The position numbers and the translations under genes are program-made. DNA of 64,000 nucleotides from Octopus vulgaris (taxonomy: Eukaryota), in the NCBI GenBank assembly GCA_951406725.2, contig OX597824.1:20832001-20896000 (forward strand), given 5' to 3'. The stretch's first letter is position 1, and every line of letters starts with the position of its first letter. This document shows, piece by piece, positions 16,989-40,306 of the stretch. The notes below the pieces were generated by a model. That model was not told the origin of the DNA. It saw only the letters and a program-made list of their open reading frames with translations, and did not search any database.

Positions 16989-17179
16989 AAGAGTTTTGAC
17001 CAAAAATAATAAAAATATTTTGACCAAAAATTTTCAAAAAACTTTCAAAAAATTTTTTACCAAAAATTTTTAAATAGCTGGAATGTGTTGAATTTGTGGA
17101 TATCTGGAATGTCTGGAATTGCTGGAATGTTGGAATCTGTAGGTATGTACATATATATATATGTATATATTCATATCTC

Positions 17180-18583: not shown

Positions 18584-18762
18584 TATATACATACATATAT
18601 ATATATAAAATTATTTTTAGGGAATAAAAATTCCAGCATAACAGAGGTTCAAATTATTCTCAATGAAGAAATATATATTAATTTAGAGATAGTAGGCCCC
18701 TACATCTCACCATATAAAAAGAATTTTTATTTTTATTTTAAATACCTACTGTTTTATTACTT

Positions 18763-18857
18763 GGCAACACGTGTTTCATGAGGTACATCCTCGGGTTCCT
18801 AAACCACTCCATGTTTTCCTGGAACCCTTCTTAAAATGTAGCCCCAATCATCAGGCC
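18763..18857 (-). ncRNA. Type I hammerhead ribozyme motif with extended stem II (Penelope-like element type)
   Basis: Minus strand reads GGC-CUGAUGA-[long stem II incl. UACAU/AUGUA and GGGUUCC/GGAACCC]-GAAAC-ACGU-GUU-GCC. Palindromic stem III ACACGUGU; 3-bp stem I. Confidence 0.7.
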
Positions 18858-18928
18858 CTTATATCACTTTATCAGCGTTCAATACAATAAACTATATATT
18901 TTAATTTTTTAAAGCCCTTAAGTATGTG

Positions 18929-18978
<50 letters not shown>

Positions 18979-19509
18979 GTGAAGGAACACTTCCAGCCCC
19001 TCAAGGTTCTCTAGTTTGCGCCTGGCCGTAGTGGCAATGTGTGCTTGAGTACTGCCAATAAAACTTTATCCAAAAAAAACCCTGAAAAAGGAGTGCACAT
19101 CTTTGGTAGACTAATGTCAGATATCGGGCTTTCGAAGTATCATATACTCACTGCATTTAGTTGAGCATAAAATTTAGCATTTACGGCATGACCGTATGGG
19201 ACAAGCTAAAAGTACAATACTTCTTCAAAATTCCGCAAACTGTCTTAGTTTTCTGAAAACTCTATCCAAAAAACCTGAAGGCATAGCTTGTGTGGTGTCT
19301 CTCTGGAAAGATAGTTGCTCATCTGCTAATCACTGAAAAGTGAAGGAAATCGAAATACGATGATTATTTAATGCACTTTATTTATAGACTTTGTATACTT
19401 TATGCAGAATTTTATAGACTTATTACACAGCATTCATAAAATAAATAGTCACTCTTATTTTTCCATTTTTCCTATAAACAAAAAATAAATATCCCGTACA
19501 TATGATACA

Positions 19510-20030
19510 ACCTTTAGTTAAACCGTCTTAGTTTGGCAACGGGTTCTGCAGCTTGACCGGAACGAAACCACTGATTTCTCTTAGGATTACAAAAATAATT
19601 CGATTTTCAGCCGTAGTCATAACCAAATGCCAAAAACGGGCATCTCGAGTATTTGGCAGCAGTTTCATTTGCAAACATTCAAAATTCTGGTCATTTGTCA
19701 GTCCATAAGGAACTTACCGACAGCGTCTGTTCACAAGGCTGAGTTTATGGAGGTGTTGGTTGATGGTGCTTTGTGAAGGACCAAGTTCCACCGAAAATGT
19801 ACGAGTAATTGCGCATGGCTGTTCGACTATTTCAAGCAAAGCCTTATCTTGGGTTTGGTTCGAGGCTACTACCACCTTCCTTGAAACGTTTGAAGCAGTT
19901 TTGTGTCACACGTTCGTTGACAGTTCCTGGGTCAGCCACATCAAAAATTTCTTTTGCCGCTTTCTTTGCACTCAACCGTGTTTACCTCAGGTAGCGTAAA
20001 ATTGCTTTAATCTTTTTTTTTTCATCACAC
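19510..20030 (-). pseudogene. Decayed mariner transposase, N-terminal half
   Basis: Hand translation: KAAKEIFDVADPGTVNERVTQNCFKRFKEG (HTH) ... ELGPSQSTINQHLHKL ... VPYGLT (WVPHEL-like) ... QWFRSGQAAEPVAK; stops and frameshifts present. Confidence 0.8.
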
Positions 20031-20130
20031 ATCAAAGCTGTAAAGCAAAGAATAAACAATAAATGTTTTTATACTAAATATGAAAATAAAGGAAAAACAT
20101 TCCAGCAACGATTTGACAAGTTGTATCAAA

Positions 20131-20523
20131 TCTCTTTATATATAAAGCTGAAGTTATCTGTGTATGGCAGGTTTGGTAGCTTTCAACTAATACTATCTCC
20201 TCCGAGGCCCTGCGGCGCAAGTTGACCAAAATTGAGAGCATGATAGAAGAAGGATTGCTCTTCCTTCCGTAGAAGAAAGAATTCAAATCGGACCATGTTA
20301 ACACCAAAAATTATTTACATCAAAAAGGTGCTTTTTTTCTATGAAAATCCCTATTTTTTACGATTTTTTTGACTGTTGTGTCGCCATTTTTCGGTGTATT
20401 TCAACCAGAAAAATGTTCACTTAAAGAGAATAACAAGCTACATAATGCAAAATGTTTACTTTTCGAAAATTCCAATTCTAAAGGGTCGAAACAAACCCAA
20501 GCAACGCCAGGCGATACTGCTAG
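20131..20523 (+). mobile_element. Non-autonomous Helitron
   Basis: Starts TC(TCTTTATATATAAA), ends with GC-rich subterminal motif and CTAG, inserted between A and T. Second copy at 48278-48664. Confidence 0.8.
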
Positions 20524-20660
20524 TTAATAATATAACTTGGAGATACAAGTTGCCAAAAATTGCCGGTGAAAATCCGAACAAAAACTTTTTACTCAACTTG
20601 AAGTATATACGTGTAGCTATACATACACGTACACATACATGAATACATACACGCACAGTG

Positions 20661-21036
20661 ATACACTCCGTCGGTTACGACGATGAGGGTTCCGGTTGAC
20701 CCGATCAACGGAACAGCCTGCTCGTGAAATTAACGTGTAAGTGGCTGAGCACTCCACAGACACGTGTACCCTTAACGTAGTTCTCGGAGATATTCAGCGT
20801 GACACAGAGAGTGACAAGGCCGGCCCTTTGAAATACAGGTACAACAGAAACAGGAAGTAAGAGTGAGAGAAAGTTGTGGTGAAAGAGTACAGCAGGGATC
20901 ACCACCATCCCCTGCCGGAGCCTCGTGGAGCTTTAGGTGTTTTCGCTCAATAAACACTCACAACGTCCGGTCTGGGAATCGAAACCGCGATCCTACGACC
21001 GCGAGTCCGCTGCCCTAACCACTGGGCCATTGCGCT
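20661..21036 (-). mobile_element. tRNA-derived SINE, family C
   Basis: Head TGGCCCAGTGGTTAGGGCAGCGGACTCGCGG...GGTTTCGATTCCC (Pol III A/B boxes); near-identical to 41308-41674. Confidence 0.9.
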
Positions 21037-21185
21037 TCCACACACGCACAGTACATATTTATTAAACTGGGGAAAAATTGACAATTGACTTGGAGTCCGG
21101 AAATTTCTTTTAAGGGATGTGTGTGTGAGGCAGTGATTGGTAACCGAGACCTTAGGCGATATACCGTGCTTGTAAAACCTGTCAA

Positions 21186-21510
21186 ATGAGATCGTTGTCA
21201 TGGCTGATGCGGGTGTCATGTCCAACGCACCCGTACCGGTGGGACGTAAAAGTCTTGGAGTGGTTGGCGTTAGGAAGGGCATCCAGCCGTAGAAACCAAG
21301 TCAAAACAGACTGGAAACCGGGACAGCTCCCGGCTCACCAACTTTCAATCAAACCGTCCAACCCATGCCAGCATAGAAAACGGACGTTTAATGATAAACA
21401 GACTGGAATACCGGGACAGCTCCCCGGCTCACCAACTTTCAATCAAACCGTCCAACCCATGCCAGCATAGAAAACGGACGTTTAATGATCGTGATGATAA
21501 TGATGATGAC
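21186..21510 (+). mobile_element. Family D retroposon with (ATG)n tail; 3' part tandemly duplicated
   Basis: GAGTGGTTGGCGTTAGGAAGGGCATCCAGC...GTCCAACCCATGCCAGCAT...GACGTTTAATGAT core, found in more than 10 copies in the window. Confidence 0.8.
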
Positions 21511-22058
21511 CATACACACACACACAAAGTTAATACATACACATATACTTATATGTAATATACACTTGTATTCGAAAGTTTTAGAAACGGTCCCGTTTCC
21601 TCCGTTATTTGTTGATGTCTTTCAAAGATATATTTTTTATAATTTACCTCTGCTGACTGAGCGAATTTTTCTAACAACCGGGGCCACTGTACAAAGGTTG
21701 TATTATATGTCAAAGTACATTTTCTCACAAACCTTAAATCAAGTCCGCAGATAATAAATCCACGCTTTCCACCGATATTTTGGAGTATTTATAATATACA
21801 TGGGAATTAAACGACTTCCTTCTGTCAGATCGGATATTATTCAAAGAAGCCCAATTCATTAACGTGCTTTTTTTCCCTTTCCTTCTTCTTTAAAGAGATA
21901 TCTATCTACTAAATTTATTTACGAGACTGGCAACGAAAGCTAATAAAAAATATATCAGTGAGTCTTAGTGTGTTTAACGCAAGGGGAACTAAAAATCAAG
22001 ACGAGGAATAAAGATGCGGTGAGAAAAAAAATATTACTTCTCAATGAAAAAACAACAG

Positions 22059-22229
22059 AGCGCAGGAGTGGCTGTGTGGTAAGTAGCTTGCTAACCAACC
22101 ACATGGTTCCGGGTTCAGTCCCACTGCGTGGCATCTTGGGCAAGTGTCTTCTGCTATAGCCCCGGGCCGACCAATGCCTTGTGAGTGGATTTGGTAGACG
22201 GAAACTGAAAGAAGCCCGTCGTATATATG

Positions 22230-22262
<33 letters not shown>

Positions 22263-22480
22263 ATGTGTTTGTGTGTCTGTGTTTGTCTCCCTAGCATTGC
22301 TTGACAACCGATGCTGGTGTGTTTACATCCCCGTTTCAGATTCTTCTCTCGGCAAAAGAGACCGATAGAATAAGTACTGGGCTTACAAAGAATAAGTCCC
22401 GGGGTCGATTTGCTTGACTAAAGGCGGTACTCCAGCATGGCCACAGTCAAATGGCTGAAACAAGTAAAAAAGTAAAGAGT
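22059..22480 (+). mobile_element. tRNA-derived SINE, family B, near full length
   Basis: tRNA-like head, CORE-like CTTGGGCAAGTGTCTT segment, internal (TG)n, conserved 3' tail. Further copies at ~32615-32942, 34722-35100 and 61585-61930. Confidence 0.9.
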
Positions 22481-23972
22481 ATATATATATATATATATAA
22501 ATATTCTGCTCAATACCACAGATTTGCTTGTCAGTTGTTTGACCTTAACCACTTGAGCATGTCCCTTAGTGGCTGATGATATGTGCATCTCTGATCACGA
22601 GCAGAAGTAGTGGGGGAGCATCATAGCCATGTGTTGAAAGGAATTCTTTTGGGGTTTGAATAATTCACCTTTGAAAACATGGGTGGTTCGTTCAACATCC
22701 TTATTGAGGGACCTTTTGAGCGGGATGGGTTACTCGACCAGAAGAAAATTCTAACTGGGCCCCACCTGCAAGGTCATGTGCTGTTTATCTTGATATGAGA
22801 TCACCATGTCGCGCACATAAGGGCGTGATGCTTGTGCCTGGTGTACCCTTATCAGACGGGTAGTCATGATGGGTATACTGGGCTTCGTATATTTTATTCC
22901 AGTGTCACTTTGATGGCATGCACTGCTCTCTCACCCAATAATAATAATAATAATAATAACAAAAGCAACAACAATAATAATGATAATGATCATAATAATA
23001 ATCCTTTCTACTATAGGCACTAGGCCTGAAATTTAAGGGGAGCGGCCCTTAAAGCCAGGAACTTTTCAGCACCCCTTCATATGAATTCTTAACGTTTACA
23101 GATAAATGTCTCGACAATTTGCTAATTTTGAACTGTTAAACCCACTTCGTTAGAAATTATGATTTTCCAGTTTTAAATTAAATAATTCCCCCAGACTAAT
23201 CAATTTTCGTTTTCCCATTATTTGTATGTACTTTTAAGCTTCTTTTTGCCCCTCTCCTCGCTTTATTTTGTGACTTCCTAAATGCATTTACGTTTGGGAA
23301 AATAAAATCGTTCGTAAACAACGTATTTTCGTAAATTTCTGAAATTATTCAGGTAAGGGAAATAACTCTAAAGAAACTTCTGCTTATCTGAGAGTTATTT
23401 CCCATATGTAAATACTGTATGGCTGAATGTGTATGACGCCCGCTTCGCAACTCCAATGTTCCGGGTTCGATCTCACTTTTTGGTAACTTGGGCAAATGTC
23501 ACTTCTTATTGTTTGGGTCGACGTATATCTTCTAAAAGAAAATGGGTAGACGAAAACTGTTAAAAAAATCGTCGGGAAGATTGCACACGTAATTCAAAAA
23601 GCACAGCCTTGTCACACATTGCATTACATCCATTCTGCATGAGAATTGCGATAAGTGTACATGGGTCTGTGGAATACTCAACCACTTACACGATAATTCA
23701 TAAACAAGTAATTCTGTTTAATACACTACGTCATCTGAAAGTGTAATGTTTTCTGGAATAATCCAGTGACATTATATTTTAATAATTTCATCATCACCGC
23801 TAAATTGTATTGAAGGAATTAAACGATAACTCGTTTAATTCCTTCAATTCTTTGGAAAAAAAAAAAAAGGAACGAGGAGAAACCGATGCAGGAGTTTACC
23901 ACATAGGTTGCATCTATTATATCATTCCTTGATACTGTCTGCACTAAGTACCCCATTAATAGGCCGCTAATA

Positions 23973-24478
23973 TCTATATATATAAAACTGTAGTTGTGTG
24001 AGTGTCTGTCCCCTTCAATTTAGATTCCTAACTACTCCCACATTTTGCGGTGCAGTTTAACCAAATTCGGGTATCTTATAGTCGTGATTCATATCGAGCC
24101 CGTCTGAGTATTAGCGCGCGTCTACGATGAGTCTACGATTTTAAAAATAATTTAACATCATTTTTTATTCCATTTTAATGCATAATTTTTCGTGTGTCGA
24201 TGGCGGCGGAGTTGGCGTCCACGCTCAAACACCTGCACCTGTTTGCTTCTCCCCTCCCTCGTGAAGCTGTGGGGAAGGGAGTGTAAGGAAATCAACGTCG
24301 TAAAGTGTTGTCAAGGAGACCAGCGTTCTTTTAGAACAACGACTTCATGGCTTGAAGACACCAAAACAGAAATGGCTAAGAAAGCCCGAATTGGCATCTA
24401 TAAGGGAAGTAACTCTCTAAAAATGCTTATATAGTTATTTCCCTTACAAACCCGAGCAACGCCGGGCGATACTGCTAG
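23973..24478 (+). mobile_element. Non-autonomous Helitron, second subfamily
   Basis: A|TCTATATATATAAA start; CCCG-AGCAACGC-CGGG hairpin then CTAG|T end. 3' end shared with 20131-20523, interior different. Confidence 0.8.
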
Positions 24479-24878
24479 TGAAAAATAAAGGACTGAAAAC
24501 TTAGGGTAAGCAAATTAATAGCTTCAGTTTTCTGTAGCTAATGGATTTGTTCTGCATATAAACAGATCAGCTCTTTCCTGGGATTATTCAAGTGATGTAG
24601 AGAAACTTTATCCAACCTGTTCTTACTCTAGCTGCTAAACTTTCAGAACATGTCCCTGCCTATTAATTAGGTCACCTAGATAATAAAAGCTATCAAAAAC
24701 TAGGAAAGCTTTTCAGGTATTTTCAGCCTTCTCTGTTCACCTACCTCCAATCCTATCACACCCCTTGTATTTCCACTACTTATGCTGGGTACACCGAATG
24801 GAATTTCTACTTGCTTCTTTTCTGCATACTGAGTACAGCTATTTTGCTGATGGTATCAAGGTCTTTATATAGGTATAA

Positions 24879-25135
24879 AGGCGGAAAGCTGGCAAAAACG
24901 TTAGCACGCCGGGCGAAATGTGTAACCGTATTTCGTCTGCCGTTAGGTTCTGAGTTCAAATTCCGCCGAGGTCGACTTTGCCTTTTATCCTTTCGGGGTC
25001 GATAAATTAGGTATCAGTTACGCACTGGGGTCGATAAATTAGGTACCAGTTACGCACTGGGGTCGATATAATCGACTTAATCTGTTTGTCTGTCCTCTCT
25101 GTGTTTAGCCCCTTGTGGGTAGTAAAGAAATAGGT
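24879..25135 (+). mobile_element. tRNA-derived SINE, family A (MetaSINE-like central domain)
   Basis: Consensus GGCGAGCTGGCAGAAACGTTAGC...GAGTTCAAATTC...GCCTTTCATCCTTTCGGGGTCGATAAATTAAGTACCAG. Other copies at ~26978-27185(-), 28548-28778, 33181-33400 and 51865-52066(-). Confidence 0.85.
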
Positions 25136-25306
25136 ATGAAGGTCTTTTCTTTTTTCAAACTCCCATCTTTGTTAAATTTTCTTTAAGGGTTTTCAATTCC
25201 AGGTTTTTGCTTTTACATCAGAAATACTTCTTCTACACACACACACACATAAATAGAGATACAGTCATACACAAAGAAACTAATAATTTACATATTTACA
25301 AGCACA

Positions 25307-25312
25307 TTTATT
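25307..25312 (-). terminator. Candidate poly(A) signal AATAAA of the BTB-containing gene
   Basis: TTTATT on the + strand, ~540 nt past the stop codon, at the end of an AT-rich 3' UTR-like region. Confidence 0.45.
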
Positions 25313-25846
25313 AAACCTTAATATCTATATCTATGTGTGTGAGTGAGTGTGTGTGTGTGTAAAACATATACATATATTTATAAACCTATATATATATATA
25401 TTACACCAGATAATATAGTCTTCTGTTTGATGTTTCTGAGGGTTTCTTGTACCATATTCAAACGTGTTTTAAGATACTGGAACCCACGGTTGTTTTTATA
25501 ATGTGATGTGATACCAGAAAATTGGAATAGTGATGGAGTAAAACTTTAGATTCGAATGAATGTATGAATGAGTGAATGGATGAACAAAGCAATATACATA
25601 CATACATATACATATATATATGTGCATACATATATATGTGTTTATATATATTATAGATATGTTGATAGATAGTTATGCATTTATGTCAACAACCACAAAT
25701 GTACACACATATATAAATGAATAGGAAGCAAAAAGATGATATGTCCAAAATTGGTCTCTGAATGTGAAAGGAATTTCAGTTGATATTGGTCTCATGAGGA
25801 AAAAATTTCATTTATGTTTTGTTTTTGTCAGTTTTGTATAATGGTT

Positions 25847-26872
25847 TCAGTTTGATGCAAGAGAATAGAGGGAGAATGCGTCACCCGATGTTGGCACCAA
25901 AGTAACAGGAAAAGGAGACGGTGAGGATGTTTGCTGTAGGACTTCAGTTGAACTCAAGTCTGCTTTTGATAATTCGGGACTTAACGATTTATTTGGAGAT
26001 TTTCTTTCATTGTTTTTCTGTGAAGATTGGTTATCGTGAATAGAATGGTTCATCTGTTTATCTTCCCCACTGTCTCCATCGCTGTTGTTGCTAGGAATGG
26101 TGGTTGTGCTGCAGTTGTTGTTGTTAATGTGTTCAGTACTTTGGTCTTGAAGGTCGTTCTCATAACTTTTACCTTCTTGTGACAAATAGGAACTAATCTG
26201 GTCAGTACTTTGCTTTTTCTGACTAAGCTGAATGGAAGAATTAAACTCTGAAGAATGCTGGTACGGTTCTGTTTTGACCTGTCCTTGGGGAGTCGTGAAA
26301 ATCTGAGCATTTTGACTCGTGGACGGAAGACAATATTCTTGACTATCAGGAAACACGACAGGCATGTCACTCCCAGGGTGGAGTCTAGACATTGCTGAAG
26401 CAGCAGGACTCGCAAGAGCAATGTTATGGTAACTCGTAAGATCTGCAGAATGCTGATAATGATTAGGGTCTATTCTATCAGCCAGACTATGGTCGTCCCC
26501 TAAATTAAGAATTACAGTCTGTTTGCTAGGGCGCCCTCTTTTCCGTTTGCCAGCATATTCCTGGCTGTAATTTTCAATCAAAGAAGGCATGGTTATCGGA
26601 AGCTGCAGATGAAGCTTATACTCAGCTAAACTGGAAGAAAATTCTCGACAATATCGCTGAACTTTCTCTACTTTCAGCAAATTAGCAACACGTTCAATGT
26701 CTTTGTAATTGTACTCGGTTAAGTTCAACACTCCATCGTAAAGAAAAGCTACAAAGGTGGCAAGAGCTTCGTCATTGATGCCAGACGGAAGATTCACTTC
26801 AAGCTCCGCACCGTCTCTTATGTTTTTCTCAAGCAGATGAGGACTCACAGCAAATAAAATCAGTCGATGAAG
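25847..26872 (-). CDS. Coding exon 8 (terminal): BTB core, AT-hook, low-complexity tail
   Basis: ttttacag|LHRLILFAVSPHL...FVAFLYDGVLNLTEYNYKDIERVANLLKV matches the BTB HR.VL.A.S / F.YTG.L pattern. KRKRGRPSK at 26522-26548; stop TGA. Confidence 0.92.
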   Translation of the reverse strand, partial: LHRLILFAVSPHLLEKNIRDGAELEVNLPSGINDEALATFVAFLYDGVLNLTEYNYKDIERVANLLKVEKVQRYCREFSSSLAEYKLHLQLPITMPSLIENYSQEYAGKRKRGRPSKQTVILNLGDDHSLADRIDPNHYQHSADLTSYHNIALASPAASAMSRLHPGSDMPVVFPDSQEYCLPSTSQNAQIFTTPQGQVKTEPYQHSSEFNSSIQLSQKKQSTDQISSYLSQEGKSYENDLQDQSTEHINNNNCSTTTIPSNNSDGDSGEDKQMNHSIHDNQSSQKNNERKSPNKSLSPELSKADLSSTEVLQQTSSPSPFPVTLVPTSGDAFSLYSLASN

Positions 26873-29800
26873 CTGTAAAAGATGAAAAGAAAATGTTCAG
26901 ATTATTTAAAAGCAAACAGTCAGCCATTTTGTTTACTTCATTAAGAATTTTTTCAAGTAAATATGATTGATTATATTTATTTCTTTATTGCCCAGAGGGG
27001 GCTAAACATAGAGGGTAACAAACAAAGATAGACAAAGGGATTAAGTTGATTACATTGACCCCATCCCGAAAAAGGATGAAAGGCAAAGTTGACCTCAGCG
27101 GAATTTGAACTCAGAATGTAATAGCAGATGAAATATCACTAAGCATTGCACCTGGTGTGCTAACAATTCTGCCAGCTTGCTGCCCTGTTTAATTATATTA
27201 CAAACAAGTAGCTAACATACACAACTGTAATTATGTAACAACAACGACGACGTTGTTGTCGTCGTTTAACGTCTGTTTTCCATGCTAGCATGGGTTGGAC
27301 AGTTCGACCGGGATCTGGGAAGCCAGGAGGCTGCACCAGGCTCCAGTCTGATCTGGCAGTGTTTCTACAGCTGGATGCCCTTCCTAATGCCAACCACTCC
27401 ATGAGTGTAGGGGTGATTTTTATGTGCCACCAGCACAGAAGCCAGAGGAGGCTGGCAACTTCTACGATCGGTTGGTGCTTTTTATGTGCCACTGGCACGA
27501 ACGCCAGTCAAGGAGGCACTGGCATCAGCCATATTTGGATGATGTTTTTTACGTGCCACCAGCATAGGTATCACAACTACAATTTCCATTTGATTTTTAT
27601 TTTGATGTACTTGACTCAACAGGTCTCCTCAAGTATAGCAGGTTGCCCTATATACATCATCATCATCGTTTAGCGTCCGTTTTCCATGCTAGCATGGGTT
27701 GGACGGTTCTACTGGGGTCTGTGAAGCCAGAAGGCTTCATCAGGCCCAGTCAAATCTGGCAGTGTTTCTACGGCTGGATGCCCTTCCTAATGCCAACCAC
27801 TCCGTGAGTGTAGTGGGTGCTTTTTACGTGCCACCCGCACAGGTGCCAGACAGAGCTGGCAAACGGCCACGAACGGATGGTGCTTTTTATGTGCCACCGG
27901 CACAAGGGCCAGGCGAGGCTGGCAACGGACACGAAACGGGGCGGTGCTGGCAACGGTCGCGAAACGGAAGGTTCTCTGACATGCCACCGGCACTGGTAAC
28001 ACATCTGCAATTTCCATTGATCGATTTCCATTCTGATCCTCACTTGCCTCAACGGGTCTTCACAAGTAGAGTTTCGACATGCCACCGGCACTGGTAACAC
28101 ATCTGCAATTTCCATTGATCGATTTCCATTTCTGATCCTCACTTGCCTCAACGGGTCTTCACAAGTAGAGTATCGACATGCCACCGGCACTGGTAACACA
28201 TCTGCAATTTCCATTGATCGATTTCGGTTCTGATCCTCACTTGCCTCAACAGGTCTTCACAAGTAGAGTTTTGTGTCCCAAGAAGGGAAGGTATGCATAC
28301 GTAGGCTGGCTCCATCCCAAGTAGAAGGCCACGGGTTATGGACTCACTTGTCCTGCCGGGTCTTCTCGCGCACAGCACACAATTATAATTATACAAGCAA
28401 TTAACTAAAACAGCAAAAAATATATCTATACTATATACAATTAACTATAGCAAAACAAACCACCACCATCGACCATACTCAAATGGTGCTTTTGATGTGC
28501 TACCCTCATGGGAGCAAGTCAGGCAGTACTGGTATTGACCATTAAGATGGCGAGCTGGCAGAAACGTTAGCACGCTGGGCGAAATGCTTAGAGGTATTTC
28601 GTCTGCCATTACGTTCTGAGTTCAAATTCCGCCGAGGTCGACTTTGCCTTTCATCCTTTCGGGGTCAATAAATTAAGTACCAGTTGCGCACTGGGGTCGA
28701 TATAATTGACTTAATCCATTTGTCTGTCCTTGTTTGTCCCCTCTGTGTTTAGCCCCTTGTGAGTAGTAAAGAAATAGGTATTGACCATGCTTGAACAGCA
28801 CCTTTTACATGCCAATCAGGTGGCACTGGCATCAACCATACTCGAATGGTGCTTTTCACATGCCACCAGCATGGGGGCCACACAGATGGCACTGGCTATG
28901 TGTCACTGGCACAGATGCCAATCAGGTGGAACTAGCATTGACCACGCTTGAATGGTTCTTTTTAAGTGCCACTGACATTGGCATTAGCTATGCTCAAATG
29001 GTGCTTAAAATCTCAAATATAACAATGATAGTTTCTTATTCCCCACAAACTTTTAACAAACAATCATATTTACCATAATCTTTGTCTCTCCGCTACAAAT
29101 AACGGCATCACAAAGTTTGTTAGTTCTCCACAACCAAGACAAGGATTTTAAAATTCCATCAGAATGTTCTGGTTCGACATAGGCTTTTTTAAATGGTGTT
29201 GGTGATTTCACATATGAAGATGTAAAGCTGAAATAGAAAAAAAGTAGCACAATGTTTTACGTACAAATTATTCCTTTAGCAATCAGATTACTCTGCAAAA
29301 TATAATGCTTCTTTATCCATATTGTTTTGTTTTAATCATGCATTATCTTGAAGCTTTGAAATGTGATTGTATATTTTCAGAATGACATGGAAAGGTAGGT
29401 GTGAGAGGTTGGATCTAGCCAGTTTGAACAGAAAACAGGTCGAAAGAATATTTGGGTTGGTTATGGCCAGTTTAAATGCTTAAGGGCTGAAGATGGTGGC
29501 AGAATTATTAGAATACTTGATAAAATGACAATTCAAAACCAACACAAACTGAGAGAGGAAAAGACAGCTCAGAGTTGAAAACAGTGGAGAATAGTTGTCC
29601 ATGATCAATGTTCCACATGGATCAAAGGGCCTAAGTAGAAAGTAAGTACATTAATAATTTTAGAACAGTTCTTAAAGTCAGGGATTCTTTTGACAGCTTC
29701 AACAATTAAATAAAAACCAAAAGTTCTTAAACATTAGAATAGCTTAACCCTTTCATTACCAACATGGTTGAAACCACCTCTCACTCTATAGTACAAATGT

Positions 29801-32800
29801 CTTGTTTTCATAAGTTTTGAATTAAAATCTTCCACCAAACCTTATTCACAATTTATGTTCCTTACACCAGCTTAATGATAACTAAGTTATTTTACTAAAT
29901 TCTTTATTATATTCAAAATTAATCGAAAGAAACACAGACCATCAAATGGCGGTGCCCCAGCATGGCCACAGCTCATAAGCTGAAACTAGAATCAATCAAT
30001 CAATCTCAAAATAAATATGGTAACGAAAGGATTAAATGAAATAAATTTCAACCGACTTCGTAGACCAGGATTTTGCTAATAAACTTGGAAGTTACCTCGG
30101 AGATTCTTCACATGTTGGAATACGCAGGGCAGTTGTGGTAGTGGCAGTAGAAGTACATCCTTCCAAAGATTCAATAAGACTAGAAATACCTTGTCCTGTA
30201 CTCCAAGACTCTAAACCGTCCTATTAAAAGAAAAATAGAATGACATGATGAAAATTACAACAGATCAATTTTTGAAAAGAGAGTCTACTCACCAATGTTG
30301 TGACTGAGTAATAATCAAACTGATGAATGGCTTGGTGCTGAATACTGAACTCATTAAAACTAAACTGTAGTTCATTACTTACAATGGATGGATAGCTGTC
30401 CTCGTTTCAGCTGGTGTTCTGCTAGATAAGAGCACAAGCTACTAACCTTTAGATTCTAAGTTCAATCAGAGGCACGGACTTGAAAAATAATATTAACAGA
30501 AAAATAACATCAGCAAAAAAGAATACCTTAGGAATGAGAACAGATTATCCCATTAGTCAAATAAAAGTTTGGATTCGAAATTCCACCAGGACACCTGATG
30601 AAGGCTGGAGAGAACATCAGCTGAAACGTTGTATAATAATAATAAAAAAGAACTTATTGTATACAGTGCTCAGGTGCACCACAACTTGTCAAAAGTGTGT
30701 ATAAAGCATATGCAGTAATGTACAAATGTCTGGAAAGTGAACAGTGTATGAGTCAGCTATATGCTTGCATGTGTATGGAGGGGAGAAAATCAGGTGTAGC
30801 ATTGGCGAATCTCAGGAAGCATGGAAGTTTTGAAGGATGCAGGGTTCCAACAACTAACAACTAATGCCGACAGTTTGTTCCATGCTTCAGCAACTCTTAG
30901 TGTGAAAAAATGTTTCCGAAAGTCATTGGGAGCTGTGCTGTTTTCTGACTTTCTAAACATGTCCACAGGTGTTAGATAGGTGGAGTTTGAAAAGGTGCTC
31001 AGGGTTATTGTTTGTAAGATGGTTAATAATTTTGCGGGTGTCTGTCAAGTCAGCCGCCAGACGTCGGAGTTTCAAAGTATCCATGCCCAAATAAGGTGAG
31101 GACACCAATCCGTCCATTGTAAATAATGTACATAATTCCTCATCCCCAAAATATAGAATAGTATTAAACTGTAGTTTATGAAACATTGATGGAGCCTCTA
31201 TGTGGTTGTTTAATTTGCTACAAACAGCAGCCAAATATCCCTCAAATTACACAGTAACATCTTTATAAGCACCAGAAAATGGATATAAAAAATTTATGCT
31301 TCAGGGGTTAAAAGTTTGTAGCAAAGATTTCAGAGAACATTTATTAATCACACAATACTTGTGATCAAAGATACTTGGAATATATATCTTCCCTATTTTT
31401 AAGAAAGAAGGGTAAAATCTGAGTAGTAACTGGCTGCTATTTCTAGCTGATTGAGCGACAACCAAGAGCATATGTTGATGTTTAAATTTGGGGCACTTGC
31501 TTGTAGAATGAGAAATTCAAGTTTGGTCAAAGAAATGGTTGTTACATAGCTCAGTGAATCTGTGATGTACAAAATTCCTCATCCCCAAAATATAGAACAG
31601 TATTAAACTGTAGTTTATGAAACATTGATGGAGCCTCTATGTGGTTGTTTAATTTGCTACAAACAGCAGCCAAATATCCCTCAAATTACACTCTAACATC
31701 TTTATAAGCACCAGAAAATGGAATTAAAAAATTCATGCATTAGGGGTGGTGAATAATATGGTTTCAGAGAAAAGACCCAGGGAGATTTGTTCATACAAAA
31801 AGTTGTGCATGCAAACAGATGGAAAGTCACCAGAGAAACTGGTAGGAGAACTATTTTCATAATGACTTTCGAGCATGATCATTACCAGCGTCGCCTTACT
31901 GGCACTCGAGCCCCGTGCTAGTAGGGTGTTAAGAGCATCCATTACACTTTCAGAGTGGATGGCGTTAGGAAAGGCATCCAGCTGTAGAAACTCTGCCAGA
32001 TCAAGATTGAAGCCTGGTGCAGTCATCTGGTTCACCAGCCCTCAGTCATTCGTCCAATCCATGCTAGCATGGAAAGCGGACGTTAAACAATGATGATGAT
32101 GATGACATTCTGGCAGATTTGAACATGAATATGCAGGCCACTGTTGTGTTTTGTCACAGGGAAACAACATTTTTTACCATGAAAGTGAGTTTATAACACA
32201 CTTGTTTCTTTAAAGCAAAGAACATTTCTGATTCTTGCCGTCCACTGTGAATATAACAGTTTATTATCTGTTGGCATGTATCAGCATGGATCAGCAAATG
32301 ATTTTGTTTACTGAAGTTATAAGCAAGAGCTGTGATTCTTGTTAGATTCATTAGTCAGGGATGCCTCTGACTGATAAGACACAGCAACGTTGAAATACTG
32401 GCTGTTCCAAGGTCACTTTTGCATTAAAGAAAAGTTGTTCAGTGACAAACATGACAGCAATTAGCATATTCACACCTGAATCTGCATTTTATCTTTTATC
32501 TTCTAATTATTTTAGTCACTGGACTCTGGCCATGCTGGGGCACAACCTTGTCTGAATGCATTAAGAATAAACACTCGAGTCATTGTTTTGAATTTTGCTG
32601 TTTACAGTTCATATTCTTTTATTCTTTTACTTGTTTCAGTCATTTGACTGTGGCCATGCTGGAGCACCGCCTTTAGTCGAGCAAATTGACTCCAGGACTT
32701 ATTCTTTGTAAGCCTAGTACTTATTCCATCAGTCTCTTTAGCCAAACTGCTAAGTTACGGGGACGTAAACTCACCACCATTGGTTGTCAAGCAATGTTGG

Positions 32801-35800
32801 AGGGACAAACACAAACACACAAACATATAAAAACACATACATATACATATATACGAGGGGCTTCTTCCAGTTTCTACCATATCCACTCACAAGGCTTTGG
32901 TCAGCCCGAGGCTATATTAGAAGACACTTGCCCAAGATGCCGACAATTTATTATTCTCATTGACATTTTTATAAGTAAATGGTATGGGTGCCGGTGCCAC
33001 GTAAAATGCACTCAGTAAAGTGGTTGGCGTTAGGAAGGGCATCCAGGTGTAGAAAACATGCTAAAGCAGATGATGGATCCTGATGCGGTCCCTGGCCCTG
33101 CCAGTTACTGTCAAGCCATCCAACCCATGCCAGCATGGAAAACAGATGTTAAATGATGATGATGATGATGTAATGGGACAAGGCGGCGAGCTGGCAGAGA
33201 CGTTAGTACACCGAGCGAAGTGCTTCGCTGTATTTCGCCCGTCGCTACGTTCTGAGTTCAAATCCCGCCGAGGTCAACTTTGCCTTTCATCCTTTCGGGG
33301 TCGATAAATTAAGTACCAGTTACACACTGGGGTCTATGTAATCGACTTAATCTATTTGTTTGTCCCCTCTATGTTTAGCCCCTTGTGGGGCAATAAGGAA
33401 ACGATGTAATGGAACAAGTCCAAGTTATGTTGAGAATGAAATAAGTTGTAAAGACATGCAATCTGAAAAATGCAATAAAACTGTTTTCTTTTGAGGTGAA
33501 TATTTGATTATATTTACCTGTGTTTGGCGATGAGAAGACTGGGCAGCAACAGGTTTTTCACACACTTCACTTGAAGATGATTCCGGTTCGCTCACAACCC
33601 GTCGACGCTTACGTTTTTCCACAACTTCAATGTTTGTCATAATTCTTCTCTCATTACGGAATTTATCAGAAAGTGTTGCAGACCAAGATTCCTAAATTAA
33701 TATATTTAATGGAATAATTCACTTTTTTTGGAATTGGTTCAAAGTGCATATAAAGCTATAAATAGCAGCATGTAAATATGGAGTTAAAAAACCCTTCTGG
33801 ATAGAAAAATTTGAAGTCTGCCGTAGGGACCTGAACTTACATCTCCTGTAGACATGACAGATGTTCTACCATTATACCAAAGCAAAGTGTTTGTGTCTCA
33901 TCTTAATATTGTAATGAGAACTGTGCCAGTGGCACGTAAAAAGTACCAACTGATCGTGGCCGCTGCTAGCCTCCTCTGGCACCTGTGCAGGTGGCACATA
34001 AAAAGCATCCACTACACTCACAGAGTGGTTGGCGTTAGGAAGGGCATCCAGCTGTAGAAACACCGCCAGATCAGACTGGAGCCTGGTGCAGCCTCCTGGC
34101 TTCCCAGACCTTGGTCAAACCATCCAACCTGTGCTAGCATGGAAAACGGATGTTAAACGATGATGATGAGGAATTGGAAATAAGTGTCACCATTACATAA
34201 ACAGTGCCACTCATTTCTAATCTTCCAGGTAAACATGTCTGGCCATGGAGAAATATCGAAATATCACCTTGCTTGAAAAGAAGTGAGGGTTGGTGACAGG
34301 AAGGACATCCAGCCTCAGAGAATTTCGTCTGACCCATGCAAGCATGGAAAAGTGGATGACAGAACAATGATGATGATGATGTTTAGAGATACGAAAGGTC
34401 GACTTTGCTTTTCATCCTTTCGGCATCAATAAGTTAAATACTAATTGCGTACAGGGGTCGATCTTATCGACTGGCCCCTCCCCGAAAATTTAATCAAAGA
34501 GAAATAAGACAGTAACTTACATAACCTTTACCGCCGGGGACCGTATCCCGTAAATGTGAATATTCTGTAATAATTGCCATGGCAACTTCTTTGTATTGAG
34601 ATGACGTAGGGTAACTGTAATTGGATACAAACATTGTCTGTGTTGATAAATATCAAAATAAACAACAGCAACAACAACAACAAGAAACTGTCTGCAACAA
34701 GAATCTGTTATATTTTGTTTGTTTTAGTCTTTAGACTGTGGCCATGCTGGGGCACTGCCTTGAAGAATTTTTAGTTGAATGAATTGACCCTAATACTTTT
34801 TTCACAAACTTGGTACTTATTCTATCAATCTCTTTTGCCAAACCGCTAAGTTACAGGGACATAAACACATCAGCATCGGTTGTCAAGCGATGTTGGGGGA
34901 GACAATCACAAACACAGACACACACACACACACACATACATATATACGATGGGCTTCTTTCAGTTTCCGTCTACCAAATCCACTCACAAGGCTTTGGTTG
35001 GCTCGAGGCTATAGTAGAAGACACTTGCCCAAGGTGCCACACAGTGGGACTGAACCCGGAACCATGTAGTTCGTAAGCAAGCTACTTACCACACAGCCAT
35101 CGTTTGCTGAACTACTAAGTTACGGGGAGGTAAACAAACAAACACTGCTTGCCAAGCAGTGGTGGAGGGCAAACACAGACACAAAGATACATGCACACAT
35201 ACACACATATGACAGGCTTCTTTCAGTTTCCATCTACAAAATCCACTCACATTGCTTTGGCCAGCCTGTGGCTATAGTAGAAAACACTTTCCCAAGGTGT
35301 CACACAGTGGGACTGAACCCAGAAGCATATAGTTGCAAAGCAAACTTCTTACCACACAGCCACACCTGGGCAACCTTTTCCAAAAAGTAGGGGTTACATG
35401 AGGTATGACTCATCATCAGGTGGGCTGCACTACTAAAAAAAAATTCAAGAAAATTTTTTGTTTGGCAAGACATCCAGAAAGTCCCATAGAGCACAGATCC
35501 CCCATGACTGGTCTACATGATTACTCATGCTATTAGAAAAAGCAGTCAAATTTCTCTTAACATTTGATGATGTAAGTTAAGGTTATACAATATTTATGAA
35601 ATATTTGAAGGTGGCAAGATGGCAGAAGCGTTAGCACGCCAAGCAGAATGCTTAGCGGTATTTCATTTGCGTTACGTTGTGAGTTCAAATTCCGCCGAGG
35701 TCGACTTTGCCTTTCATCCTTTCGGGGTCGATAAATTAAGTACCACTTACGCACTGGGGTCGATATAATCGACTTAATACCTATGTCTGTCCTTGTTTGT

Positions 35801-38800
35801 CCCCTCTGTGTTTAGCCCCTTGTGGGTAATAAAGAAATAGAAATAGGTATTTCATCTGTCTTTACATTTTGAGTTCAAATTCCGCCAAGGTCAACTTTGC
35901 CTTTCATCCTTTCGGGGTCGATAAGTTAAGTACCAGTTGTGTACTGGGATCGATCTAATTGACACTGGCTCCTTCCCCCAAAATTTCGGGCCTTGTGCTT
36001 AGATTAGAAAAGAGTATTAAAAGTGGTAAGCTGGCAGAAACTTTAGCATGCCAGGCGAAATGCTTAGCGGTATTTTGTCTGTCTTTACGTTCTGAGTTCA
36101 AATTCTGCCATGGTCGACTTTGCCTTTCATCCTTTCGGGGTCGATAAATTAAGTACCAATTGCATACTGGAGTCGATCTAATTGATTGGCCCCCCTCCCC
36201 CAAAATTTCTGGTTTCGTGCCTAGAGTAGAAGATAGTATTAAAAGCGGCAAGCTGGCAGAAACGTTTGCATGCCAGGCGAAATGCTTAGCAGTACTTCAT
36301 GTCTTTACGTTCTGAGTTCAAATTCCGCCGAGATTGACTTTACTTTCCATCCTTTTGGGATTGATAAGTTAAGTACCAATTGCGTACTGGGGCCAATCTA
36401 ATCGACTGGCCCCCCCTCCCCAAAAATTTCTGGCTTTATGCCTAGAGTAGAAAAGAATATTTATGAAACATACGAGTTAGGATGACCATGGGTTGAATAC
36501 CTTTGATCATAGGACTAAATCTGTCCCCATGGAAACTTACCACAAATGCTTTTTGACTCAAGTGGGGGTACAACTGATCAACATGAAATTTTACCAAATG
36601 CATGACGAGCAGTTATTTAGCATTTGAATAGTTGGTTACATATTTAATTATTTTAAAAAGATATATACAAACATAAATCAGATTAATAACTCACACTGTA
36701 TAATTAATCATTTCGTCATAAATAGCTTGTATCAGTGCTGACTTCATCTTGCGACTTAACACCTGTTTCGAAGCAAGTGTAGATTTTAACTCAGGACGGA
36801 ATAAGTGTGTAGGAATTCGGAATGGTACAGGCCAAGGCTTAAACTCCATGTGTTCAGAGTGGCTGCAAAGTAAAAATGGAAAAAGAAAAAAAAAAAACTA
36901 ATTAATAAATAGGTACAGGTAAAGGGGTGTACTTGAGAAGGTAGCTTTGCATGCACATGGTTTTAAGGACAATCCCATTACATGATACTTTAGAGTTTAT
37001 TAATTCCTTGTGAGTGGAATTAACCCATGCCAGCGCCACATGAAAACCACCTGTACCAGCACCATGCATCAAACATCTGTGACTGTTTTGGCAGGATTTT
37101 TACAGCTGGATGCCCTTCCTAACATCAACCACTCAGCAGAGTGGACTTAATGCTTTTTATGTGGCACAAAGCACAGGCGAGGTCAGTTTTGGTAAGGTTT
37201 TTTACAGCTGGATGCCCCTCCAAACACCAAGCACTTTACACTGTGGACTGGGTGCCTTTAAACGGTATCTGCACTGCCAGGGTCACCAAGTACTTGCAAG
37301 ACAAAAAACAAAACTTTGAAGAGGGGAGGGGGCATTGGTGGAGGTGATCTGGTGTTGGATGATGAAAGGTTATAGTGAACCAGAGAGACAGAAACGGGTG
37401 TCTTGTAGAGGAAGTACAAGGTTACCTGGCCAGAGAGACAGAGATCAGGAACAAAGACAGAAGCAGGTGAGTTACTGCAAAGGAAAAACATGCTTACCCA
37501 ACCTGAGGGAAATGCAGGAGAAGGAGAAAGAGAGAGAGTGGGAGATAGCAGGGTAGAGATAGTGGCAAAATGTTGGGCATACTCACAAGGAACGGGGATC
37601 AGAATATAATTGGGATCGTTGAGTAAAGGAAGGGAGAGAAATATAGATGGTGGCAAGTGCCAATCATCATCGTTTAACGTCTGCTTTCCATGCTAGCATG
37701 GGTTGGATGGTTTGACTGGGAAGCCAGAGGCTGCACCAGGCCCAATCTTGATCTGGCAGTGTTTCTACAGCTGGATGCCCTTCCTAATGCCAACCACTCC
37801 GTGAGTGTAGTGGGTGCTTTTACGTGCCAGGCGAGGCTGGCAACAGCCATGATCGGTTGGTACATTTTACGTGCCACCGGTACGGAGGCCAGTCGAGGCG
37901 GCGCTGGCAATGGCCACATTCGGATGGTTCTTTTACGTGGCACCAGCACTGGTATCACAACTGCAATTTCCATTGATTTTTGATCGAGACAAAAAATCAC
38001 CCGAATAACAAGACCAAGCCGTATCAATACAAAGACCCACAGAGACAAACACCTGTGAGACGAAAACTATGTGCTTGTGAAGTGGACAACAAAACCATAG
38101 GAAAAAAAAATTATTACTTACGCTAATTTGTTTCGCACATCTGAAGATTTTGCAGAATTTGAAACTGTGGACGATGAAGCCTCGTGTTTGTCAGCATCAG
38201 GCATCAATGTATCAACAACATCTTGCAATGAATTAGATGACGCTGCCACCGGTTCTTCAAACCCACTCATCAATGAACTATTGGTAACCTGAATAAATTG
38301 TGACATAAAAATAATACTGATCGTGAAAAACCAACTTTAAAATGGATCAGCTACCGCCATTAAGAAAATATTCAAACACAAATGAGACAGCTAAATGTTA
38401 TTTACAGATTTAGATTACACAAACTAAGCTAAGCAGCAGATCCTAGTATCTTGGAACATAGGTAAACACAGACATGTACACAAACACATGCAGAAACATA
38501 CTTGATAAAAAATGCTGCAAAATGTTCAAATTTAAGGAATTTGTTTTTAATTTCATAATAGCATAAAGAAATTTTTATCACAACTATTGGTGCTCACTAA
38601 ATATTTGCCAGTTTCCAAGAATTGAGGGATTCTTTTACTTTATAGCCACAAAGTTATCAGAAAGTTTGAAAGAAAGTTAAATGTTCAATTAATGATTTTA
38701 ACATCCGCCCACCATGGGACTAAAGAAGTCCCATTTAAAAACTGATCTACATTAAAAAAAATACCATCAAAATTTCATATTAATTTAAGATTTAAACACC

Positions 38801-40306
38801 AGATTAATAACAACAAAGTTATTTACATTATTTACATTTGACAGATATTTGTCCTCATCTTGTTTGTTGTTAACACAACATTTCAGCTGATATAACCTCC
38901 AGCCTTCATCAAGTGTCTTGTGGAAACTTCACAAGCTGCCACATTTAATCATCCACATTAGCCATGGGCAAAATGCAACTAACAGGACCTTCTGAATGAC
39001 CCAAACCAATAAATTACTTTGAATTTTTTTTAGTATTCCCCACCCATTGACGAGCTATGTCTCATGCAGTCACACTTCTCAAAAAAGTTGCCCATGGTTG
39101 CTCAAGAGTAGTGGTTCTCAAAAAGGGTTCATACAGCCCTTGGGGATCCACGTAAGATTTTGTTAAAATTTACAGGCAATAAAATTGGTTATACTTCTAA
39201 AATACATCAAATATCTTAACAATTTTTTTTTATACACCATCATCATCATCATTGTTTAACATCTGCTTTCCATGCTGGCATGGGTTGGACGATTTGACTG
39301 AGGACTGGCAAGCCAGGAGGCTGTACTAAGCTCCAATCTGATCTGGCAGGGTTTCTACAGCTGGATGCCCTTCCTAATGCCAACCACTCTGAGAGGGTAG
39401 TGGGTGCTTTTTATGTGCCACCAGCATGGGAGCCAATCAGGCGGCACTGGCATTGACCATACTCAAATGGTGCTTTTTATGTGTCACTGGCACAGGTTCC
39501 AGATCACAATTTCTAATAATATTAAATGACAAAAATATAATAGGATTTTTTAAAAACATTAAATGGCTATGAGGGTCCCGTAGAGTAAAATAGGGATCAG
39601 AGGGTCCATAAGTGAAGAATGGTTAAGAACCACTGATCCCTACTGTTTGATTTATCCTAGCAGTGATACCCAGCAACCACAACAACAATAACCACATTAT
39701 CAAAAGTACCCTTTTGCCAAGTTATAACAAAAAGTTAGTGAAATATTTAAAATGTTTACAGTTGGAAAATAATTTGACAAAAAATGTGAATTTTTAATTA
39801 TTTTCTGAGATTTTACAAAAACAACACAAATATTATCAAAAAAATATATTTTAAAACAAGACAACACAATTACAGCAAGACATTAATGAAAAAATGTAAA
39901 TACCTCTTACCATCGGACTATTAATCATCAATGAACTATTTGTAACCACCGGACTATTGACCATTAAATTGCTACAACTGACCATTGAGGAGGTGAGCAA
40001 TGAAGAAGTATTACTAACCATAGGACTGGTAGCCTGTGTGACCGGGCTTTGGCTCATAATGTTACCAGCGCCTGGACTGATACCCATGGATAACTCTGAG
40101 AGATTCATAATTACATTCAGTCGGTCTCCATCTTGTAAGTCTGATGGTTCAACGTCCACCCAGTCGTGCCAGTCGTCATTCCACTTCTGGATACTAAAAT
40201 TTCCCGACGGCAAATTGAAAGCACGAGTTATCATGCTGCGGATTATGTAAGGATATAACACATCGAGCACCTTCTTCTTGTAGCCAAAAGTAATGTGAAA
40301 CTTCAT
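25847..40306 (-). CDS. Spliced gene, 8 coding exons, 767 aa: ubiquitin/PB1-like domain + SAMD3-like helical domain + BTB/POZ + AT-hook + S/Q/N-rich tail
   Basis: join(40306-39911, 38288-38122, 36862-36695, 34614-34521, 33691-33518, 30220-30096, 29227-29074, 26872-25847). All introns GT-AG; phases 0,2,2,0,0,2,0 compatible; 2304 nt open. Confidence 0.85.
27655..28380 (-). mobile_element. Family D retroposon with three internal ~110-bp tandem duplications; adjacent copy at ~27240-27650
   Basis: Segment CATGCCACCGGCACTGGTAACACATCTGCAATTTCCATTGATCGATTTC...CACAAGTAGAG occurs three times; (CAT)n tail at the left end. Confidence 0.85.
29074..29227 (-). CDS. Coding exon 7: start of BTB domain
   Basis: tttcag|...EPEHSDGILKSLSWLWRTNKLCDAVICSGETKIM|gtaaat; typical H...L..L..L.....LCD motif. 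Confidence 0.9.
29744..30035. mobile_element. piggyBac-type MITE carrying an inserted retroposon tail (~29945-30005)
   Basis: TTAA-CCCTTTCATTACC ... GGTAACGAAAGGA-TTAA; same family as 54522-54746 (opposite orientation). Confidence 0.75.
30096..30220 (-). CDS. Coding exon 6 (S/T-rich linker)
   Basis: ttttaatag|DGLESWSTGQGISSLIESLEGCTSTATTTTALRIPTCEESP-AG|gtaact; phase 0 in, phase 2 out, joins exons 5 and 7 in frame. Confidence 0.72.
30590..30635 (+). ncRNA. Minimal Penelope-type hammerhead remnant
   Basis: GACAC-CUGAUGA-AGGCUGG...UCAGCU-GAAAC-GUU-GU; core intact, stem I partner reduced to 2 bp. Confidence 0.6.
30640..31095 (-). mobile_element. CR1-clade LINE 3' fragment
   Basis: LGMDTLKLRRLAADL...NTCGH...FRKHFFTLRVAEAWNKLSALVV...SFK matches the CR1 ORF2 C-terminal TRGH / FF..RV...WN.L pattern; A-rich tail. 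Confidence 0.8.
31134..31735. repeat. Local direct duplication, ~160 bp (31134-31295 and 31573-31735)
   Basis: AATTCCTCATCCCCAAAATATAGAA...AAGCACCAGAAAATGGA present twice, nearly identical. Confidence 0.85.
33518..33691 (-). CDS. Coding exon 5: end of helical domain and basic NLS-like stretch
   Basis: aatttag|ESWSATLSDKFRNERRIMTNIEVVEKRKRRRVV...QTQ|gtaaat. Confidence 0.85.
34521..34614 (-). CDS. Coding exon 4
   Basis: ttacag|YPTSSQYKEVAMAIITEYSHLRDTVPGGKGY|gtaagt (too short for the ORF track). Confidence 0.85.
35610..36460 (+). mobile_element. Head-to-tail cluster of four family A SINE units
   Basis: Repeated GAGTTCAAATTC...CCTTTCGGGGTCGATAA cores at ~35680, 35870, 36095 and 36315. Confidence 0.85.
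36695..36862 (-). CDS. Coding exon 3
   Basis: tttgcag|HSEHMEFKPWPVPFRIPTHLFRPELKSTLASKQVLSRKMKSALIQAIYDEMINYT-GT|gtgagt (not in the ORF track). Confidence 0.85.
37664..37985 (-). mobile_element. Family D retroposon
   Basis: Same core and (CAT)n tail. Further copies at ~31860-32105(+), 32988-33170(+), 33920-34170(+), 39238-39505(-), 43725-44035(+), 44905-45380(+), 51590-51857(-) and 58930-59220(+). Confidence 0.85.
38122..38288 (-). CDS. Coding exon 2 (Ser-rich linker)
   Basis: attcag|VTNSSLMSGFEEPVAASS...DVRNKL-GC|gtaagt. Confidence 0.82.
38872..38917 (-). ncRNA. Degenerate minimal hammerhead, same family as 30590-30635
   Basis: Minus strand GACAC-UUGAUGA-AGGCUGG...UCAGCU-GAAAU-GUU-GUGUU; 5-bp stem I intact, two core-region C>U changes. 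Confidence 0.55.
39109..39635. mobile_element. hAT (Charlie-like) MITE interrupted by a family D element
   Basis: Terminal inverted ends TAGTGGTTCTCAA ... TTAAGAACCACTG; no target duplication verified. Confidence 0.55.
39911..40306 (-). CDS. Coding exon 1: start codon, ubiquitin/PB1-like domain, Ser/Met-rich repeats
   Basis: Acceptor poly(T)-aacag 3 nt before the ATG; MKFHITFGYKKKVL...FNLPSGNFSIQKWNDDWHDWVDVEPSDLQDGDRLNVI; donor ATG|gtaaga. Confidence 0.88.

Follow-up and report, generated by a model that had tools for sequence, protein, structure and literature searches.

The window analyzed here, a 64,000-nt stretch of the Octopus vulgaris genome (assembly GCA_951406725.2, contig OX597824.1, positions 20,832,001 to 20,896,000), contains a minus-strand gene between positions 25847 and 40306 in which the front half of a SAMD3-like protein is joined to a BTB domain. 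We call the SAMD3-like part, which consists of a ubiquitin-like domain (U) and a helical module (M), the head, and the part with the BTB domain the body. A first-pass annotation made from the letters of the sequence had proposed eight phase-matched exons encoding 767 amino acids (aa), and this model was reproduced: the exons total 2304 nt with a single terminal stop, all seven introns are GT..AG, and the predicted product is identical at 767 of 767 positions to the O. vulgaris protein CAI9729806.1 (P0007). The features of the coding region are as follows.

39911..40306, minus strand: coding exon 1, aa 1-132; U at aa 1-68 (40306-40103), then an S/N/T-rich linker
40013..40019, minus strand: alternative internal donor of exon 1, after codon 96, phase 0
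38122..38288, minus strand: exon 2, aa 133-188; linker, low model confidence
36695..36862, minus strand: exon 3, aa 188-244; start of M (from about 36837)
34521..34614, minus strand: exon 4, aa 244-275; middle of M
33518..33691, minus strand: exon 5, aa 276-333; final long helix of M with the basic tail, reaching to about 33599, followed by a linker
30096..30220, minus strand: exon 6, aa 334-375; first exon of the body, entered in phase 0 and left in phase 2, as in the paralogue on contig C24
29074..29227, minus strand: exon 7, aa 375-426; N-terminal part of the BTB (from about 29184)
25847..26872, minus strand: exon 8, aa 427-767 and stop; remainder of the BTB (to about 26636), AT-hook-like motif and tail

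An AG acceptor lies 3 nt upstream of the ATG, so a non-coding upstream exon probably precedes exon 1. Splicing from the internal donor shortens the protein by 36 aa and gives the same 140 N-terminal residues as isoform X2, which accounts for this shorter form in the database.

The join between head and body was examined in four of the 24 listed sequencing runs, one per study, whose status as RNA is a tool's guess. In each of the four, one contig carries exons 5, 6 and 7 without introns (region 29040-33730); in run X1 these exons occupy record positions 983-1161, 1162-1285 and 1286-1439 and are contiguous. Because a single contig joins the three exons in this way, head and BTB share one transcript, a conclusion that we regard as practically certain. 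The link from exon 5 to the BTB exons on which the first-pass annotation had rested its model was thus seen, at junctions 33518>30220 and 30096>29227; the remaining five junctions are taken from database models. A reading of the locus as two separate genes, or as a mis-joined model, could appeal to the guessed RNA status of the runs and to their covering two of seven junctions. It is scarcely credible, however, given that intron-free contigs bridge the head-body junction in 4/4 runs, that no intronless copy was found in a genome DNA search with exon 8, and that joined proteins occur in four named species as well as on two short Logan contigs. Orthologues over the whole length were found in three further species (O. 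sinensis, O. bimaculoides and Argonauta hians) and on the Logan contigs, whose 2765 and 2922 nt leave no room for the introns of the 14.5-kb gene.

To identify what the head is related to, residues 1-276 of the short isoform were used in a full-library search; at E<=0.001 it returned 197 relatives, of which the top 150 were listed. SAMD3 or SAMD3-like names were found in 4 of 10 clusters looked up, in sea cucumber and carp-family fish; P0017 and P0015, both so named, match the octopus head with E values of 6e-19 and 1e-20, and the M profile matches it with an E of 4e-37. When profiles were iterated on the same SAMD3-like proteins, the family divided into a U part of 64 positions, an M part of 95 and a C part of 245; the proteins are widespread, and none of the three parts has a Pfam family. 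Among 190 proteins the commonest domain orders were M-C (55) and U-M-C (44). The C profile scores 0.1 bits against P0007 and the M-C linker profile scores below shuffled sequences, so the C domain is not matched. Judged by its sequence, the octopus protein is a derivative of the SAMD3-like family rather than a full member, with U and M kept and the C domain of about 245 aa replaced. The SAMD3-like front half that had been recognized at first sight is thus supported by named relatives and by the profiles. A BTB was present in none of the 149 non-orthologous head relatives among the best 150 of 197, SAM was present in eight and Myb/SANT in one; the U-M-BTB fusion was seen in cephalopods only among the sequences examined, in keeping with the earlier suggestion that it might be lineage-specific. 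We found no functional account of SAMD3-like proteins in the open-access literature searched.

Several matches around the head were considered separately. The start of exon 6 was tried as a remnant of the SAMD3-like C domain and failed against 200 shuffles; two weak matches to exon 3, on contigs C2 and C10, lie in stop-containing, repeat-like sequence and were discounted as chance. P0123 is a 55-aa single-exon read-through in which 22/31 residues match exon 4 (28/31 for P0003, a distant orthologue); it could be either an older orthologue or a near relative of the donor. SAMD3-like modules are also joined to a weak SRF-type match in P0028 (Amphiura), to Myb/SANT in P0025 and to the C-terminal domain of MTRES1 in P0030; the last of these joins may be a fused gene model.

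An AlphaFold2 model built from 109 sequences gives U (residues 1-68) a beta-grasp fold, with a predicted local distance difference test (pLDDT) score above 90 for U and most of M; models of three full-length orthologues reached a pLDDT of 35 and were set aside. U aligns with the ubiquitin, ISG15, PB1 and CIDE folds at Z 7-8.5 and a root-mean-square deviation of about 2-3 Å over 63-75 residues, and the four matches lie within 1 Z of one another. Pfam PB1 was matched by 1 of 109 members (E 0.006), and the U profile matches aa 3-66 with an E of 2e-26. Model and profile therefore bear out a ubiquitin-like N-terminus, as proposed, within which the PB1 match is not separated from ubiquitin, ISG15 and CIDE.

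M (residues 197-306) was modeled with high confidence as four helices, the last one long and basic. It contains 20 K+R versus 11 D+E, and the median net charge across 152 family domains, cut with 14 downstream residues, is +8. P246 is retained in 100% of the M family rows, R290 in 89%, W278 in 83% and K285 in 67%, the latter three residues being located on the last helix. In relatives, M is found in tandem, in up to five copies, and adjoins SAM or Myb/SANT domains. This tandem recurrence, the basic charge and the conserved W278, K285 and R290, together with the position that M shares with DNA-binding domains in the sister loci described below, suggest that M probably binds DNA. When the U-M model was compared with structures in PDB and with viral models, practically all rows returned were ubiquitin-like, which has no bearing on the fold of M; the ESM Atlas gave eukaryotic clusters at 0.86-0.90.

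In the body, Pfam PF00651 matches residues 409-505 with an E of 3e-10 (40.7 bits against a cut-off of 20.5), and PDB matches begin at about residue 390, so that the N-terminal extension of dimerizing BTBs is present; both agree with the internal BTB starting near residue 390 that had been described. The best PDB matches are mostly ZBTB/BACH transcription factors, with Kelch-type and SPOP BTBs also included. The ZBTB/BACH type is a dimerizing subtype according to the accessible part of a published account (PMC11426971). The tail is acidic and S/N/Q-rich, with short motifs common to the C24 paralogue. The O. vulgaris record carries the name SLX4, which was tried and rejected as an identity: at E<=1, Pfam matches in the orthologues P0001-P0003 are limited to a BTB and a weak AT-hook. 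SLX4 proteins have UBZ fingers, MLR, SAP and SLX1-binding domains and an internal BTB. The name looks like a transfer through the BTB alone.

Against the distant orthologue P0003, M is 96% identical and the BTB 95%, compared with 71% for U, 60-63% for the linkers and 47% for the tail. M and BTB are thus under strong constraint, as far as sequence comparison tells, with M (96%) and tail (47%) at the two ends of the scale. When the tail of P0200, the protein of the C24 paralogue, is compared between octopus and a cluster with cuttlefish among its members, identity is 62%, which would place P0003 at least that far away. In a tree of M, the three rows from cephalopods group as a single clade on a stem of 0.64, with crown branches below 0.04. 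The octopus genome holds at least one head locus, the one found here.

A DNA search with exon 8 led to the paralogue on C24, whose product, P0200, combines DUF3504 with a BTB and has orthologues in argonaut and cuttlefish. The body exons have the phases 0/2/0, with an intron inside the BTB, in both exons 6-8 of the octopus gene and P0200. In both, the head joins the body at phase 0 after a Gln; in the SAMD3-headed gene this is the donor at the end of exon 5. The post-BTB, KTEP and C-terminal motifs are also shared with P0200. The BTB part of exon 8 is 69% identical to the C24 paralogue versus 28-34% to four other loci. At four sister loci, domain-bearing open reading frames (ORFs) lie upstream of the BTB exons.

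C24:13419080-13455329, minus strand: BTB locus with six upstream ORFs, DUF3504, FLYWCH (2), CENP-B/Tc5 (2) and integrase-zinc, each with a phase-0 donor
C15:71430096-71502000, C24:25654801-25669591 and C23:26793582-26819753: BTB loci with upstream same-strand ORFs, FLYWCH, CENP-B, DUF3504 or THAP, seven ORFs in total

The BTB locus on C5 has no domain-bearing head ORFs within 60 kb. The best 3′ donor was in phase 0 in 13/13 of the domain-bearing ORFs upstream of sister BTB exons versus 96/223 control ORFs. The octopus gene very probably belongs to this head + BTB family. The first-pass annotation had considered the position of its BTB unusual; a C-terminal BTB is indeed present, but the layout is not peculiar to this gene, being common to an octopus family with transposon-type N-terminal heads. 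No convincing U or M head was found in the stretches fetched upstream of five sister BTB loci, the best independent E values, 0.09 and 0.3 (C15), having been set aside. Inspection by eye of unmasked sequence from 17 kb to 30 kb past the end of the window revealed no second head-like ORF of >=75 aa at the octopus locus, although short or multi-exon heads could escape such inspection. Convergent with the C24 BTB locus is an 815-aa open frame with a Rab-GAP TBC domain (C24:13407545-13409989, plus strand).

From the transcript, domain order, head homology, body paralogy, matching splice phases and constraint on M and BTB described above, a model can be drawn that we favor on balance: in this conserved cephalopod gene, a copy of the head + BTB body would have captured the SAMD3-like front half of a likely transposon-borne gene, and the product is predicted to be a BTB-paired DNA-binding regulator. 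A multi-exon SAMD3-like gene would first have landed, as genomic DNA and complete with its introns, in front of body exon 6. Eighteen of 159 M matches are truncated, 14 of them ending at profile positions 71-78, three at 45-52 and one at 83, and the introns of the octopus gene inside M fall at about positions 76 and 47. Both introns flanking exon 4 therefore appear, from protein fragments rather than DNA, to lie at positions common to other SAMD3-like genes, and it is from these shared positions that we infer capture as genomic DNA. The phase-0 donor after M would then have been spliced to the body, with loss of the SAMD3-like C-terminal domain, in an event that would predate the split from relatives at the distance of cuttlefish. 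In the protein, dimerization of the BTB would bring two M modules and two AT-hooks onto DNA; M would give sequence preference through its basic last helix, the AT-hook would add a minor-groove contact and U would offer a second protein-interaction surface.

As to the source of the head, descent directly from a transposon is somewhat the likelier course. In sea cucumber, 6/6 other full-length proteins compared are 98-99% identical to P0017, and the 15 members listed are spread over at least nine contigs; a goldfish and a catfish SAMD3-like protein are 95% identical over 257 aa. The similarity of the copies and the goldfish-catfish identity fit a recently mobile, possibly transferred element. 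An animal CACTA element is reported, in the portion of PMC1636069 that could be consulted, to make products other than transposase, for which a role like that of the DNA-binding TnpA is proposed, and that portion mentions neither sterile alpha motifs nor SAMD3. The available text of PMC6004678 holds nothing on accessory genes and that of PMC10789644 no mention of SAMD; open-access text yielded nothing on topic that ties SAMD3 or the sterile alpha motif to transposons, EnSpm or CACTA, or BEN to SAMD3. The statement in the first-pass annotation that SAMD3-like genes lie within CACTA/EnSpm elements was not confirmed: two metagenome scans and one viral scan recovered no SAMD3-like loci, and the signs of mobility are the indirect ones of copy similarity. 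Its broader proposal, a domesticated transposon-accessory module on a BTB protein, holds for the fusion and the constraint; the transposon origin is at most likely, no SAMD3-like gene having been seen inside an element.

A number of observations count against the model that we favor, and the first of these concern this origin. No transposase or element ends were seen beside SAMD3-like genes. In the octopus genome itself, an intact-looking M-C gene with a 657-aa frame and a long low-complexity N-terminal part (C15:14090691-14098502) and an intact C-only exon with a 323-aa frame (C5:18002433-18003401), for which upstream exons were not found, were each matched once, and the long ORFs in the 60-70 kb retrieved include no CACTA-type transposase. 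Given these two loci, a host donor is possible, and the head might have been shuffled from an already domesticated host SAMD3-like gene instead of an active transposon, which would leave the gene and its function unchanged. Relatives in abalone, sea urchin and brittle star with U-M-M, U-M5 or other fusions likewise resemble host genes, and the octopus head has four introns, compared with the single-exon heads of the sister loci. We nevertheless consider this derivation unlikely: the C15 module is remote from octopus M (28% identity, E 0.87) and its M lies in one exon, while other SAMD3-like fragments break at the intron positions of the octopus gene, and the heads of sister loci are transposon-type domains in 13/13 checked. 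Further counter-evidence touches the tree, in which the cephalopod clade stands beside U-M-C proteins with support of only 89/81 on 116 columns, and the family comparison, in which the 13 head ORFs were chosen by eye before the Pfam check, two of them are duplicates, and joined protein records back only the DUF3504 head of C24.

The remaining difficulties bear on DNA binding. Pfam shows no consistent family for M, since 75 families were weakly matched, each by at most 3 of 109 members; BEN, a domain that M may resemble, is outside the 25 of these 75 families shown. The AT-hook-like motif at aa 535-544 (26548-26519) scores 12.4 bits with PF02178, under the cut-off of 17.4, and is absent from the C24 paralogue. 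Of the AT-hook that had been read after the BTB, the motif core (GRP) is kept in 3/3 aligned orthologues. The protein could instead be a non-DNA-binding adaptor in which the BTB would serve to recruit a co-repressor or a cullin-3 ligase, U and M would contact protein partners, and the basic stretches would be no more than nuclear localization signals. Such a role would suit a U whose ubiquitin/PB1-like fold is that of an interaction module, the presence of Kelch-type and SPOP BTBs among the PDB matches, the sub-threshold AT-hook, and the fact that the charge of M comes partly from its basic tail. It is nonetheless improbable in our estimation, because ZBTB/BACH transcription factors predominate among the top matches of the BTB, M holds the position of the FLYWCH, THAP, CENP-B and DUF3504 domains in sister loci, and conserved basic residues lie within the last helix of M as well as in the basic tail.

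The DNA-binding model can be extended, tentatively and with more doubt than conviction. M might bind DNA sequence-specifically as a domain not described so far, equivalent in animals to the helper protein that binds the ends of CACTA/EnSpm elements; the cephalopod BTB fusion, into which M would have passed almost unchanged, would then be a transcription factor that reads relics of the ends of its former element, and its head the first in the family to come from a non-transposase gene.

Two features of the window lie outside the argument. The first overlaps exon 8.

17420..27167, no strand assigned: duplicated stretch, 96-97% identical on contig C10 (about 34390242-34403311); exon 8 is the only exon in the copy

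Within the C10 copy, 11 codons of exon 8 differ (four silent, six missense and one stop inside the BTB); the copy is likely a pseudogene, and the 247-aa model CAI9728906.1 appears to derive from it. Positions 1-17000 of the window contain kilobase-scale satellite-like arrays of short units with several strand switches and a duplicated block of about 2.4 kb, visible as repetitive ORFs.

That a host gene has kept only U and M, with M 96% identical and at the position where sister loci have DNA-binding domains, indicates that M is the functional part, and a single construct of 110 aa would suffice to test directly what it does. With this gene, the head + BTB family of octopus is widened from transposase pieces to a multi-exon accessory-type gene, which offers a route to new cephalopod regulators. 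If M is indeed a transposon end-binding domain, it would also provide a handle on the function of vertebrate SAMD3.

The fusion can be set beside several known systems. In NACC1/2, the BTB comes first. These BTB-BEN proteins join a BTB to a DNA-binding module (PMC11514455, accessible text), as the octopus gene may do, octopus M being no more than a possible BEN domain. Drosophila mod(mdg4) and lola similarly combine a BTB with DNA-binding modules, many isoforms being built on one BTB; there, however, the order is reversed, with the BTB first, and the isoforms vary at the C-terminus (PMC11426971, as far as its available text goes).

SAMD3-like proteins such as XP_071833259.1 of sea cucumber and XP_026114886.1 of goldfish share with the octopus head the U-M order, the basic tail after M and apparently two intron positions in M. 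They are multi-copy and carry the C domain of about 245 aa, whereas the octopus gene has a BTB in its place, lacks SAM, is single-copy and is highly conserved.

The general mechanism, in which a domain from a mobile element is spliced to a host regulatory domain, is known. Comparable octopus proteins are treated by Mukherjee and Moroz (2023). In the part of this paper at hand (PMC10027918), CENPB- and THAP-BTB proteins have a transposon-type domain N-terminal to the BTB, the BTB itself is read as part of a transposon, and SAMD3 does not appear. P0200, with its DUF3504 head, has this layout too, and its three body exons, with their splice phases, and the motifs of its tail recur in the SAMD3-headed gene. 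Their heads are single-exon transposase or recombinase types, several per locus, in contrast to the one multi-exon head without a Pfam family, and the additional AT-hook-like motif, of the SAMD3-headed locus. The U-M-BTB fusion itself was not found in print in open-access text. Fusion of host genes with transposases is a known way for transcription factors to arise, and in KRABINER and similar genes a domain of a mobile element is likewise spliced to a regulatory domain of the host (Cosby et al., bioRxiv 10.1101/2020.05.07.082677, available portion); in those tetrapod genes a transposase DNA-binding domain is joined mainly to KRAB, with function shown, while in octopus the source would be an accessory gene other than a transposase and the function is predicted. 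The layout has a published precedent in vertebrate KCTD1 isoform b, for which, in the text accessible, a transposon-derived N-terminal domain was spliced upstream of a host BTB gene and then conserved (Kojima and Jurka 2011, PMC3212892). Both pair an N-terminal head, of transposon origin in KCTD1b, with a conserved C-terminal BTB, but the head of KCTD1b is a single-exon Crypton recombinase domain (DUF3504) on a KCTD BTB, whereas that of the octopus gene is a five-exon SAMD3-like U-M, inferred at most to stem from an element, on a ZBTB/BACH-like BTB.

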